The position numbers and the translations under genes are program-made. From contig MHRT01000001.1 in assembly GCA_001821055.1 (NCBI GenBank), positions 27,868 to 91,867 on the forward strand: 64,000 nucleotides of DNA. Reading direction: 5' to 3'. Below the pieces are notes generated by a model. That model had not been told where the DNA came from. It made no database searches and worked only from the letters and a program-made list of their open reading frames with translations. This document shows, piece by piece, positions 31,452 through 36,314 of the stretch (positions within the stretch are counted from its first letter, which is position 1; every line of letters begins with the position of its first letter). This DNA is from Candidatus Taylorbacteria bacterium RIFCSPHIGHO2_12_FULL_45_16. GTDB taxonomy: Bacteria > Patescibacteriota > Minisyncoccia > Phycocordibacterales > PALSA-1337.

Positions 31452-32405
31452 ATGTCGTACAATATCCGAGACCTCAAACAGCAGTTTTTGGAATATATCG
31501 AGATCGAACGCGGCCGGTCGGTAAAAACAGTGCGAAACTATGATTTTTTCCTTTCCAAATTCCTCAATTTTTCCAAGATCAAGATGCCCGAAGACATCAC
31601 TACCGATAAAGTCCGCGAGTTTCGTCTGTGGTTAAATCGTCAGCCTGGTTTCAAGAGCCCCACTGGCATCCAGACACTCAAAAAGAATACTCAAAATTAT
31701 CATCTGATTGCCCTGCGCCTATTTTTGAAATATCTAGGCAAGCGCCAAATCAAATCCTTACCTCCGGACATGATTGAGCTTGCCAAAGTCGGTCAGCGAC
31801 AGATCGATGTCATAACAGCCGAAGAACTGAAACGATTGTTGAATGCTCCTGATGGTGATGACCTTGCTTCTTTGCGAGATCGCGCCATGTTGGAAACACT
31901 TTTTTCAACAGGATTACGTGTAGCCGAACTCTGTTCCCTATCTCGAGATATTGATTTCAATGCCGATGAATTCTCCGTTCGTGGCAAAGGCGATAAAGTT
32001 CGAGTGGTCTTTCTTTCACTTGAGGCAAAAAAAGCCCTCAAGAAATATTTGGAAAAGCGCACTGATATGGGCGAGGCTCTTTTCGTAGAGATTAGTGAAC
32101 GCGTGAAGAAGGCAAATCCCAAGAATAAAAAAAGTGACCTGGATGTCGGCGATACCCCTCTCACCACTCGTTCTGTTGAACGTATTGTCAAGAAATATGC
32201 CATCAAGGCCGGGATTTCCAAGAAAGTTACTCCCCACACTATTCGTCATTGCTATGCTACCGACCTTCTAGGTAGTGGTGCCGATATTCGCTCAGTTCAG
32301 ATGCTCCTAGGGCATGCTAATATCAATACGACGCAGATTTATACTCATTTGACGGATACTCAACTAAAGAAAGTCCACCAGCAGTTTCATGGGAAGAGGA
32401 GGTAG
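31452..32405 (+). CDS. XerC/XerD-family tyrosine recombinase
   Basis: STGLRVAEL, GKGDKVR, TPHTIRH, LGHA...TTQIY catalytic set. Confidence 0.95.
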   Translation: MSYNIRDLKQQFLEYIEIERGRSVKTVRNYDFFLSKFLNFSKIKMPEDITTDKVREFRLWLNRQPGFKSPTGIQTLKKNTQNYHLIALRLFLKYLGKRQIKSLPPDMIELAKVGQRQIDVITAEELKRLLNAPDGDDLASLRDRAMLETLFSTGLRVAELCSLSRDIDFNADEFSVRGKGDKVRVVFLSLEAKKALKKYLEKRTDMGEALFVEISERVKKANPKNKKSDLDVGDTPLTTRSVERIVKKYAIKAGISKKVTPHTIRHCYATDLLGSGADIRSVQMLLGHANINTTQIYTHLTDTQLKKVHQQFHGKRR

Positions 32406-32481: not shown

Positions 32482-33297
32482 ATGCGCCTCATCTCCTGGA
32501 ATGTCAACGGCATCCGTGCAGTCATCAAGAAAGATGAATTTTTGCCATTCATCAAAAAATATCAGCCCGATATTCTCTGTTTGCAAGAAACCAAGGCTGA
32601 GCAAGGTCAAGCCGTGATTGATCTACCTGAATATGAAGAATATTGGAACTCGGCCGTAAAAAATGGCTACTCTGGTACGGCTATTTTCACAAAGATAAAA
32701 CCAATGACGGTAATTAATGGTCTTCCGGACAAAATTTGCGCCAAATTTGGTCTGGCGGCCGATGAATATGGAGACCCACGTACCGAAGGCAGGGTGATTG
32801 CCGCGGAATTCGCTGATTTCTATGTAGTCACTGTCTACACTCCCAATGCCAAAGAGGATTTGAGTCGAATTCCCCTTCGCCATAAACGATGGGATCCTGC
32901 ATTCCTGGCCTATTGCAAGGAACTTGAGTCAAATAGTTCTATAGGCTCACCACATGGCAAGCCCGTTATTTTTTGCGGCGATCTCAATGTGGCCCATACG
33001 CCTGATGACCTCGCTCGACCCAAAGAAAATGAAGGTCTCAAGGGATTTACTAGAGAGGAACGAGAAGGTTTTGATAATATGGTTGACGCCGGTTTCATCG
33101 ACACTTTCAGGATGTTCAAAAAAGGCAATGGTTTCTATACCTGGTGGTCAAATTGGTCCAATGCTCGTGGGCGTAATATTGGCTGGAGGATTGATTACAT
33201 TCTCGTTTCAAAAACCTTGAAAGATAAGATCAAAAAAGCAGAAATTTTGGATGAAGTGATGGGTTCGGATCATTGTCCAGTGATGGTTGAGTTGTAA
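32482..33297 (+). CDS. xth: Exodeoxyribonuclease III (AP endonuclease)
   Basis: SWNVNG, LQETK, GDLNVAH, GWRIDY, SDHCP. Confidence 0.97.
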   Translation: MRLISWNVNGIRAVIKKDEFLPFIKKYQPDILCLQETKAEQGQAVIDLPEYEEYWNSAVKNGYSGTAIFTKIKPMTVINGLPDKICAKFGLAADEYGDPRTEGRVIAAEFADFYVVTVYTPNAKEDLSRIPLRHKRWDPAFLAYCKELESNSSIGSPHGKPVIFCGDLNVAHTPDDLARPKENEGLKGFTREEREGFDNMVDAGFIDTFRMFKKGNGFYTWWSNWSNARGRNIGWRIDYILVSKTLKDKIKKAEILDEVMGSDHCPVMVEL

Positions 33298-33469
33298 TTT
33301 TTCAATTATGTCGCTATCTCATTCTTACCTTGTAGTTTTTTGAAATCTAGTTGTCTAAATCCCAAACTCTGTCGCGTTACTCCAATCCATCTAGAAACTA
33401 CCCAAAATCATTGGGTAGTTTTACGTTGTGGTTGAGCCGTAATATGTAAAATTCGGGAAAATCTGGTGT

Positions 33470-34000
33470 AAAGAAAAGCCGCGTTAAGCAGCAATTTCAG
33501 ATGGAAAAAGTGTCAACGCGGCTACTAGTGAAGTCGCGAAGAATGAAAGAGCTTGGGTCCACAGACCCGGCAGATTCAAATGGTGAATCTGGTGCGTCCT
33601 GATGATTCCTAAGTTGACGGTGTGCACTGTATCTTAAAGAAAGTGCTCTCCCAAAGGAGGCGTAATTGTGTTTGAGACAAGTACACCGTCATATTCCTAG
33701 CAACTATTGGCCGCAAAAATTTCTTCGCGCTTCTAAGTGTGAAGCCTACCCTGAGTTTTAAGGATCAAATGTTTGTTTTGATCGCAGGAAAATGATACTA
33801 AAACTTATTCTGATATTCCCATTACACAAACTCCCCAGAAATTTTTCGTATCATTTTTCTGCGATCACCTCGGATAACAAACGAGTCTACAAATATTGTA
33901 TGTCCTTTATAAGTTTCTGTAAAGGACATAATTGTGGATAACCAGGTCTTTGAGAAATACATATAGGACAAGGTATTTTGCCGGACTAAATGTCCTTCAA
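33470..34000 (+). ncRNA. Candidate large structured ncRNA of unknown class
   Basis: Seven or more stems, some nested; G-U pairs all compatible with the + strand; no ORF. Confidence 0.45.
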
Positions 34001-34009
34001 CACTCTGTT

Positions 34010-35503
34010 TTACTGCACAAAATGTTTCTTTCTAATCTCTTTGAGATTTTCCTCATCAACCTCTTCTCTCTTCTCTCTTCCTTTTTCTGCCAACTTGATG
34101 AGTTCATTTTCAGGTAATGTAAAAAGCTTCCTGGATTTTTCTTCCAAATATTTTATGGTATTTAACTTTGGGTTATCAAGCACTTCTTCCATGAGGGCAT
34201 TCAGAATTAACCCAACCTTCGGTCCGGCCGAGATTTCACCTATCTCCATGATTCTCTTGCCATCAATCTTTAACATACCTACCGAGACTGGATCTCGGAG
34301 AGCCTCTTCAACCATAGATTTGTACTTACGGAGTCGGTATGGGTCGGCCTTAGGCCTTCCAGTACCTATTCGGTCACAAATACGAACGTTCATCAGGTCC
34401 CAGATGTTATCTTTGCCTACATTCACAATCATTCGTCTAACAGCTGAAAGTGTAATCATCTCAGTATCCGCAAAAAACATATGCCAACGTACAAGTTTAG
34501 TCACTTTTTCTGTTATTTCACGTGAAAATTTCATTCTTTGAAGTATTTTACGTGTTTCACGTGAACCAACTATCTCATGCCCATAGAAAGTAGGCTGTTT
34601 TGTTTCTTGTGAAACACCCTTAGTTTGGGGTTTAGATATGTCATGAAATAGGGCAGAAAGCCTTATTTCTAGGCCCCAATTGCTGTCTGCGGCGTGCTGT
34701 AGAGAGCGCAAAAGGTGTTCCCAGACCGTGAAAACATGGGCTTGGTTCTGTTGTACTCCAATTCCGGACTCTAATTCAGGTATGAAATATTTTAATAAAC
34801 CAGTTTCTTGAAGGAGTTCAATTCCAAGTTTCGGAGCAGGAGACATGATTATTTTCACGAGTTCTTCGCGGATTCGCTCAATGGAGATTTCCTTTATAGT
34901 CTGGCTAAGCGATTTTATAGCTGAAAATGTGTCCTTTTCGATTGTGAAACCAAGTTCAACCGCGAATCGGACGGCTCTGATCATCCGTAGAGCATCTTCA
35001 TTAAATCGGTCTTGGGCTCTTCCAACAGTTCTGATAGTTTTGTCCTTTATGTCCGCAAAACCACTATACAGGTCAATTATGTCCTTTATAGCTCCATTCG
35101 AAAGAGACACTGCCACGGCGTTGACCGTGAAATCTCGACGCTGGAGGTCGTTCTCTATCCTGTCGCTGAACTTTACCTTGTCTGGATGACGACGGTCAGA
35201 GTAATTCGACTCGAGACGATATGGTGTCACCTCGACATTCCGCAGAGTCAGGTCTTCCGTGACTTCATTGATCACGACGACGGTTCCGAAGACATTTTCA
35301 TAGACGGTTTTCACGAAAAGTCCCTGGATTTGCTCCGGTGTGGCGTTGGTGGTCACGTCCCAGTCCTTTGGAATTCTCCCTAGAAACAGATCACGGACAC
35401 ACCCGCCCACCAAAAATGCCTGAAAACCCGCTTTTTCCAATGTCTCGACAATGGCGACAATCTCCCCGGGAATGGGGCTATTTTTTACGATTTTAGTAGG
35501 CAT
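34010..35503 (-). CDS. cca: CCA tRNA nucleotidyltransferase with HD domain
   Basis: VGGCVRD, DWD, RRDFTVNA, EDALRMIRA, FHDISKP, YGHE. Confidence 0.93.
   Translation of the reverse strand: MPTKIVKNSPIPGEIVAIVETLEKAGFQAFLVGGCVRDLFLGRIPKDWDVTTNATPEQIQGLFVKTVYENVFGTVVVINEVTEDLTLRNVEVTPYRLESNYSDRRHPDKVKFSDRIENDLQRRDFTVNAVAVSLSNGAIKDIIDLYSGFADIKDKTIRTVGRAQDRFNEDALRMIRAVRFAVELGFTIEKDTFSAIKSLSQTIKEISIERIREELVKIIMSPAPKLGIELLQETGLLKYFIPELESGIGVQQNQAHVFTVWEHLLRSLQHAADSNWGLEIRLSALFHDISKPQTKGVSQETKQPTFYGHEIVGSRETRKILQRMKFSREITEKVTKLVRWHMFFADTEMITLSAVRRMIVNVGKDNIWDLMNVRICDRIGTGRPKADPYRLRKYKSMVEEALRDPVSVGMLKIDGKRIMEIGEISAGPKVGLILNALMEEVLDNPKLNTIKYLEEKSRKLFTLPENELIKLAEKGREKREEVDEENLKEIRKKHFVQ
34514..34616. 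promoter_or_regulatory. Cluster of three parS-like sites inside cca
   Basis: TATTTCACGTGAAAAT 34514, TGTTTCACGTGAACCA 34553, TGTTTCTTGTGAAACA 34601 versus consensus TGTTTCACGTGAAACA. Confidence 0.7.
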
Positions 35504-35661: not shown

Positions 35662-36012
35662 TTCCACCAGTAGTTCTTTGAATGAGATACGATACCCACG
35701 CCGGATTACCTCACGGAGTCGTCCAAGATTCATGTGCATCACACCCTTTTGTCCAGCTACTGTAGACAATGTTCTTTGGGTAGCAATCGATTTGACCGGT
35801 ATCATTCCTGAATGATCTATATCAGGTCTGCAATTCTGATGTCAAACGTAATATAAATTCGATTGTATTAGGTGTTTCATATATGCTTATGAAGCGCTTG
35901 AGATGTCGTATTACGAAAAAAGTTCTGCCAGTAATGTTGATATTTTTGTAAATTATTAGAATGTACGCTATACTCTCGCTTACAGTAACTTTGTGCTTGA
36001 TTTTGTACTTCA

Positions 36013-36047
36013 CACTTAGCACTTAGCACTTAGCATTTTGCACTTTT
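36013..36047. repeat. Heptamer tandem repeat (CACTTAG)3 plus degenerate copies
   Basis: Directly upstream of tRNA-Gly. Confidence 0.8.
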
Positions 36048-36125: not shown

Positions 36126-36314
36126 AGAAATGGGGACAAGTCTGTGTATAAGGGGTATAAAAGACAGAAAAAATGGCTTAGAATCGTGAAATTTGAGTCT
36201 TATATATTCACAGATTTAGTTAATCCTTATTTATAGGGCTATTCTAGCGGACTAAGTTTAAAAGTCAGGACAAATGTGTTGAGATTTGAAATTTAAGGAG
36301 GGATTAATATTCCG

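Follow-up and report, generated by a model that had tools for sequence, protein, structure and literature searches.

A conserved structured RNA gene, uncatalogued and likely on the minus strand, in the xth-cca gap of an ultra-small (CPR) bacterium

The xth-cca gap and the predicted RNA gene

The window (the whole stretch of DNA that was analysed, 64,000 nt) contains two converging genes, xth (exonuclease III family, PF03372; 32389..33297, plus strand) and cca (tRNA nucleotidyltransferase with an HD domain, PF01743, PF12627 and PF01966; 34010..35524, minus strand), whose stops at 33297 and 34010 bound the gap under study. The gap is free of ORFs, as an earlier sequence-only reading had claimed: no ORF of at least 60 aa lies wholly inside 33298-34009, and the longest ATG ORF is 49 aa. 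Within the gap lies an RNA gene that is conserved but uncatalogued; its product, a folded non-coding RNA of ~420 bases, is likely encoded on the minus strand. Promoter and terminator scans, a start word and covariation delimit a predicted RNA of ~419 nt (33470..33888, minus strand), with +1 inferred at 33888 and the 3′ end in a U tract; xth is its convergent neighbour and cca its upstream neighbour on the same strand. The length of ~530 nt proposed earlier had to be reduced, since 33895-34000 is promoter DNA. A tyrosine recombinase gene (31452-32405) lies just upstream of xth. A separate hairpin region at 33340-33430, between the xth stop and the RNA terminator and seen also in two relatives, is probably the xth terminator or a small repeat.

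Comparison with Rfam revealed no family at cut-off anywhere in the gap. At gathering score the 64-kb window gave 4 tRNAs only; at E values up to 10 the gap gave 14 matches, every one below cut-off. Over 40 homologous loci, Rfam 15 gave 0 matches and 4 sub-cut-off ones. No copy of the RNA was found in phage records or IMG/VR. We found no account of it in the literature within reach of our search, which excluded most subscription papers; the main text of one preprint (bioRxiv 10.64898/2026.10.21.760802) contains no CPR terms, and its supplements could list the element. The locus combines the features of a stand-alone structured non-coding RNA gene: promoter, terminator, no ORF, covarying helices and a single copy. 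Covariation, homologues and the Rfam result thus bore out the proposal of an undescribed, conserved, structured non-coding RNA gene. Judged from these sequence data, a minus-strand RNA gene at this position is very probably real.

Promoter, fold and strand

The promoter scan and locus comparison identified a -10 hexamer TACAAT (33895..33900, minus strand) and a -35 hexamer TTTACA (33918..33923, minus strand); the spacer was 17 nt in 20/20 loci. The sequence TTATCCACA, which we take to be the DnaA-box consensus, occurs at 33933..33941 (minus strand), 9 nt upstream of -35, and marks a putative DnaA box. A promoter with this box was present in all of the first 20 loci; the box was perfect in 19 and lay 8-10 nt from -35 in all 20. 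An AGA, AGG or GGA start word followed 6-7 nt after -10 in 110 of the 128 loci having one (145 distinct loci). On the basis of its position +1 was placed at 33888, from which sigma-70 transcription would start.

An array of TGTCYTTTA-like words extends over 33899..33998, with copies at 33901-09 and 33920-28 and degenerate copies at 33963-70 and 33991-98. Two hairpins that had been read as the last structures of the RNA (33899-910/33919-30 and 33965-70/33991-96) turned out to be these repeats, in promoter DNA around the DnaA box. TGTCYTTTA averaged 3.3 copies around the 120 promoters listed vs 0.08 in background, and the array is the genome's only cluster of at least 3. In this genus they form inverted repeats and in many families direct ones; they are likely operator sites for a further protein. 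An exact promoter pattern searched class-wide matched 19/301 genomes; outside the RNA locus, the matched promoters stand before protein genes or leaders, and the pattern therefore added no members to the RNA family. A DnaA box before -35 is not special to the RNA, since ordinary protein genes in other parts of the class have the arrangement too; it is a general mark of some promoters. At six loci of other orders, promoters with DnaA box, -35 and -10 drive leaders of 190-600 nt before large secreted-looking proteins, and several of these leaders carry words resembling the order's rRNA boxA. Elsewhere in the window, a degenerate DnaA box flanked by TGTCYTTTA-like words, the module of the RNA promoter except that -35 is missing, was seen at 36134-36168 upstream of a UPF0102 gene.

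At the 3′ end, the terminator scan (minus-strand call at 33492-33478) pointed to an intrinsic terminator (33468..33523, minus strand) formed by a GC hairpin at 33477-33523 and a following U tract. Of 117 loci, 94 end in a hairpin and U tract of this kind, located at 152-596 nt (median 308).

All stems quoted in the sequence-only reading were found at the positions given there, i.e., 33477-85/33515-23, 33535-43/33721-29, 33555-59/33564-68, 33571-78/33584-91, 33615-25/33681-91, 33771-77/33876-82 and 33779-98/33848-67, as well as the two in the promoter. On the minus strand, alignments define a 5′ domain (33771..33882) with a short stem, a conserved UCCGAGG (33868-74) and a long variable stem (33779-98/33848-67). 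It is followed by a first GUUCUUU-type motif, placed by aligned position and degenerate in this genome (UGAUCCUU; 33760..33767, minus strand), and by a conserved GGGUAGGC (33744..33751, minus strand) of invariant or near-invariant columns, for which no partner strand was found. The central domain of ~195 nt (33535..33729, minus strand), described by a covariance model, has 27 pairs, 25 of them with two-sided changes. It comprises a closing stem, an asymmetric loop with two optional hairpins, an irregular inner rod with UUGCU/AGGAA and an apical hairpin (33648-59). A second GUUCUUU-type motif (GCUCUUUC; 33545..33552, minus strand) is unpaired in the predicted fold. RNAs of the genus usually carry two GUUCUUU copies.

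Covariation analysis indicated that the stems are real. Among 41 distinct sequences, which were aligned by fitting to the model and are not independent because of kinship, 222 compensatory cells were counted, vs 61.9 after shuffling and 18-35 with slid partners. Alignments not fitted to the model still had two-sided changes in 23/27 and 30/37 pairs. The 419-nt RNA had a folding z of -4.1 in a 12-shuffle test, and 16 control windows ranged from -2.1 to +1.8. Pseudoknot partners for UCCGAGG and GGGUAGGC were sought by eye in the alignment, and no consistent one was found. Pairing of the 5′ AGA end with the GUUCUUU motif was rejected because no covariation was seen (15/74 vs 12.8 shuffled).

The RNA had been assigned to the plus strand; however, the promoter, the GUUCUUU motif, cUNCGg loops and the terminator all lie on the minus strand. 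The assignment rested on three G-U pairs on the plus strand. These pairs are real in this genome; however, one lies in promoter DNA, and the bias is not maintained across homologues. A strand-neutral count gave 26 G-U vs 23 A-C in 40 genus RNAs and 24 vs 16 in 61 others; G-U has no clear lead over A-C, and the argument does not carry. The apical loop reads cUNCGg on the minus strand in 11 of 43 cases; tetraloops counted by sequence alone gave cUNCGg 6 vs 0 in the genus and 3 vs 1 elsewhere, with GNRA equal. Free energy favoured the minus strand in only 13/20 loci, which does not separate the strands. A plus-strand RNA of ~530 nt would account for the three G-T pairs on that strand and for a slightly more stable plus fold over 33470-34000 (z of -8.0 on plus, -7.05 on minus; 100 shuffles), but it has no conserved plus-strand promoter or terminator, and all marks of polarity are on the minus strand. 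On unfitted alignments, G-U and A-C pairs stood at 43 vs 23 when the minus model was applied (without one lone pair) and at 38 vs 38 with the plus model (without two end pairs dominated by G-U). These findings make a plus-strand RNA very unlikely.

Distribution and chromosomal setting

A DNA search of 60 relatives established that homologues exist, matching 21 of 36 genus genomes and 3 of 24 from other families; all 20 fetched loci sit between xth and cca. In 68 of 79 genus genomes the covariance model of the central domain found a single copy; outside the genus, 2 of 71 genomes from other genera of the family gave weak matches. Among the best 29 cca loci from the rest of the order, the unit (DnaA box plus promoter) was present in 18, pointing toward cca in 15 and away in 3. 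A pattern scan of GTDB gave at least 120 loci. The 80 titles listed were Patescibacteria or bacteria without lineage label, and 'Saccharibacteria' labels among the pattern loci are doubtful, as some such loci cluster with this genus. Among the 120 loci listed, 104 adjoin cca and/or xth (73 toward cca, 31 away). No such unit was found in the 1.2 kb after cca in 40 genomes of other orders (3 shortened by contig ends), where this stretch held tRNA-Pro or tRNA-Ala in 31.

The promoter, the GUUCUUU motif and the terminator thus recur across the order in both orientations at the cca/parS locus, and the unit bodies are lineage-specific, mostly 150-480 nt. Bodies of different families do not align with each other, yet z was below -2 in 62/65 (terminator included). 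By these sequence comparisons, one order of Paceibacteria has kept the predicted RNA gene at its cca/parS locus. A promoter, 7-nt motif and position kept while the fold is rebuilt by lineage constitute a rare case, and one in which family models miss the RNA. In many families, genomes of 0.5-1 Mb that have lost SRP and the anti-SD retain the RNA gene at the same chromosomal landmark, and this suggests a core function.

Two parS-like sites lie inside the cca coding sequence, outside the RNA (34553-68 and 34601-16; 34553..34616). They are the genome's only sites with at most 2 mismatches to the sequence that we take to be the parS consensus. Five closed genomes have 20 parS-like sites, all within ~4 kb of cca; their distance to dnaA is 5-40 kb. 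In the present genome, parB is on a contig other than that of the RNA. The AT-rich dnaA-dnaN gap holds 3 DnaA boxes and is likely oriC; the RNA locus holds a single box, and a box cluster with an AT-rich unwinding region was not found there.

A DNA element at the RNA locus, such as oriC or a dif/Xer-type site, could contain palindromes that merely resemble RNA structure. The DnaA box, the nearby parS sites, an 11-6-11 inverted repeat at 33901-28, the tyrosine recombinase gene (31452-32405) and the small G-U bias would all fit such an element. However, the 3 DnaA boxes of the dnaA-dnaN gap are in the usual place of oriC; many families have direct repeats, and the spacing varies, a pattern that the core site of a recombinase would not allow; and the start word, the motif and the terminator, being strand-specific, mark a transcript. 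We consider a DNA element highly improbable.

Relation to known RNAs and possible function

The sequence-only reading had also suggested a highly diverged housekeeping RNA, and this did not hold. RNase P core motifs are on contig C10 and tmRNA is at C1:125093; neither the core motifs nor tRNA-like ends were found at the RNA locus, and both slots are filled elsewhere. SRP RNA, its helix-8 motif and SRP54 (Ffh)/FtsY were not found in the genome (98% complete). Parcubacteria are reported as lacking both SRP54/FtsY and SRP RNA (PMC4508563). With the Rfam 6S model, none of 101 order genomes gave a match over cut-off, but 17 of 151 phylum genomes gave matches, and from 16 of these (one near-duplicate left out) we built a CPR 6S profile. 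In the present genome, a 6S RNA missed by Rfam lies directly after ndk, outside the window (C1:118464-118583, plus strand; nhmmer E 5e-4, 26.8 bits), with the CACCCACCU hallmark and a 3′ bubble hairpin; a genome search with strict filters had missed it, and an unfiltered search and nhmmer found it. The profile gave candidates in 26/61 order genomes, and the 6 that share a contig with cca sit 45-110 kb from it. Many 6S matches elsewhere in the phylum follow a protease-like gene. The 16S rRNA gene of this genome is split over two contig ends (C4:377-1949 and C7:1-1711) and carries insertions; the 23S gene is unlinked, on C7.

The central domain resembles 6S RNA (RF00013) in being a rod of ~190-195 nt with a large internal loop, and 6S is likewise fast-evolving in sequence; the Rfam 6S model, moreover, finds nothing over cut-off in the 101 order genomes. 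However, the RNA lacks both the GGGAG...CACCCACCU hallmark of CPR 6S and the 3′ bubble hairpin, and the unit is 150-480 nt long with extra domains and a terminator. In 18 loci holding the RNA the CPR 6S profile gave nothing above 13.7 bits. With RNase P, tmRNA and 6S located elsewhere, SRP not found and the 6S profile scoring low in these loci, the RNA is additional to the housekeeping set. A diverged 6S, SRP, RNase P or tmRNA is scarcely credible; the discovery of the Rfam-missed 6S removes the most obvious ordinary explanation.

OLE, ROOL, GOLLD and the raiA motif are orphan large structured bacterial RNAs, stand-alone and with multi-helix covarying folds. The present RNA shares with them a stand-alone gene, a covarying multi-helix fold and discovery by comparative genomics. 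It differs in that no Rfam 15 match was found at its locus or at 40 homologous loci, that the fold is kept within the genus only whereas promoter, 7-nt motif and terminator are order-wide, and that it was not found in phages.

GUUCUUU was the only clearly enriched word across families, often in 2-3 copies, with the leading G and the middle C fixed. In the first 230 nt of the 120 loci listed it occurred in 79 in sense and 4 in antisense (5.5 shuffled); among non-genus RNAs it was present in 39/61, with 0 antisense. In modelled folds the motif was more accessible than average (unpaired 0.53-0.63 at the U run vs 0.40), and it lay 3-4 nt after a helix in 44/125 cases vs 30/290 controls. Two GTTCTTT words also occur on the plus strand at 35662-35830, just after tRNA-Arg; this stretch was not conserved in 60 genus genomes.

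The motif resembles boxA. G1, C4 and the U run are common to GUUCUUU and to the boxA words of E. coli and B. subtilis given in PMC13753749. As in rRNA-operon leaders, where boxA serves NusB-S10 in the rrn antitermination complex, a strong sigma-70 promoter and a 5′ helix precede a G-x-x-C-U-U-U word with an A-rich tail. The motif lies just 3′ of the 5′ helix and is strand-specific, and NusB is encoded. However, no rRNA lies downstream here, and the rRNA promoters lack a DnaA box (0/29). The order's own 16S leaders carry NNC(T/A)TTGA(A/C)AA in 18 of the 23 with a located promoter. These leaders fix TTGA(A/C)AA; the RNA fixes GUUCUUU and leaves position 8 free (G in 35/186 motif copies). Since only 11/186 copies fit the rRNA boxA TTGA(A/C)A, we rejected GUUCUUU as an rrn-type boxA. 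It may nevertheless act like one. Rho was not found in the genome.

In small regulatory RNAs a short invariant word is typically set in a variable body that ends in an intrinsic terminator. The present RNA fits this type, and its motif is partly accessible, so that GUUCUUU or a C-rich loop (as in RsaE/RoxS) could be a base-pairing seed on an otherwise variable scaffold. The complementary AAAGAAC, however, was found near start codons in 7/701 genes of one genome (7.5 expected) and in 0/29 16S rRNAs. The anti-SD CCTCC is missing from the 16S tail in 29/29 order genomes, and GGAGG precedes 1/403 genes here. With no anti-SD and rare SD words, C-rich SD-pairing seeds would be left without a target class, and this speaks against an RsaE/RoxS-type sRNA. 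A base-pairing sRNA is on these grounds unlikely.

It is also possible that transcription itself is the function: a DnaA-controlled promoter at the parS cluster would affect ParB/SMC loading or origin topology, GTTCTTT would be a NusG-type TTNTTT pause signal, and the folds would just stabilise and stop the transcript. The location of 20/20 parS-like sites of five closed genomes within ~4 kb of cca is consistent with this possibility, and conservation is far stronger in promoter and terminator than in the body; the unit is tolerated in either orientation. GTTCTTT contains TTNTTT, and pause hairpins just upstream of this NusG motif are described in PMC9963633. On the other hand, the middle C and the leading G of the motif are fixed, although TTNTTT allows any base at its N, and a genus domain of 195 nt with several helices, invariant loop bases and compensatory changes is more than a passive transcript needs. 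We give transcription as the function a small chance.

CsrB/RsmZ-type RNAs titrate a protein through many single-stranded GGA motifs on a variable scaffold with a terminator. The RNA studied here likewise has a short single-stranded motif in several copies, a variable scaffold and a terminator; it differs in having GUUCUUU instead of GGA, and 1-3 copies rather than many. We suggest that the RNA binds and holds a protein through single-stranded GUUCUUU motifs, a possibility that we place somewhat short of an even chance. NusB-S10 is the best named candidate for the partner, albeit a doubtful one. The order of the parts is conserved: the DnaA box comes first, then -35/-10 and the start word, and after these the motif, the structured body and the terminator. 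Sigma-70 RNA polymerase would transcribe the minus-strand RNA from 33888; DnaA and a further protein on the TGTCYTTTA repeats would control the promoter, which would tie the RNA level to the replication cycle. The body, a scaffold that differs by lineage, would protect the RNA and display the motif 3-4 nt after a helix, and GUUCUUU on this stable scaffold might, as a guess, hold a protein partner. Bodies that cannot be aligned between families, and a model matching 2/71 genomes weakly, would be odd for one conserved RNA-protein complex.

A broader proposal is that an order-wide RNA, fired by DnaA inside the parS cluster, sequesters a factor for transcription or ribosome assembly (NusB-S10, for instance) once in every replication cycle. 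It would couple replication to ribosome production in cells without Rho, SRP and Shine-Dalgarno pairing, and would belong to a new class whose members are recognised not by their fold but by promoter, 7-nt motif and position. Taken as a whole, this proposal is quite unlikely to be correct. The RNA gene offers handles on the link between replication and expression in CPR bacteria, namely its DnaA box and the proteins that would bind TGTCYTTTA and GUUCUUU.

A short tandem 7-mer repeat (~4 copies) was also observed at 36004-36045, before tRNA-Gly, and similar words occur in a few other genus genomes.
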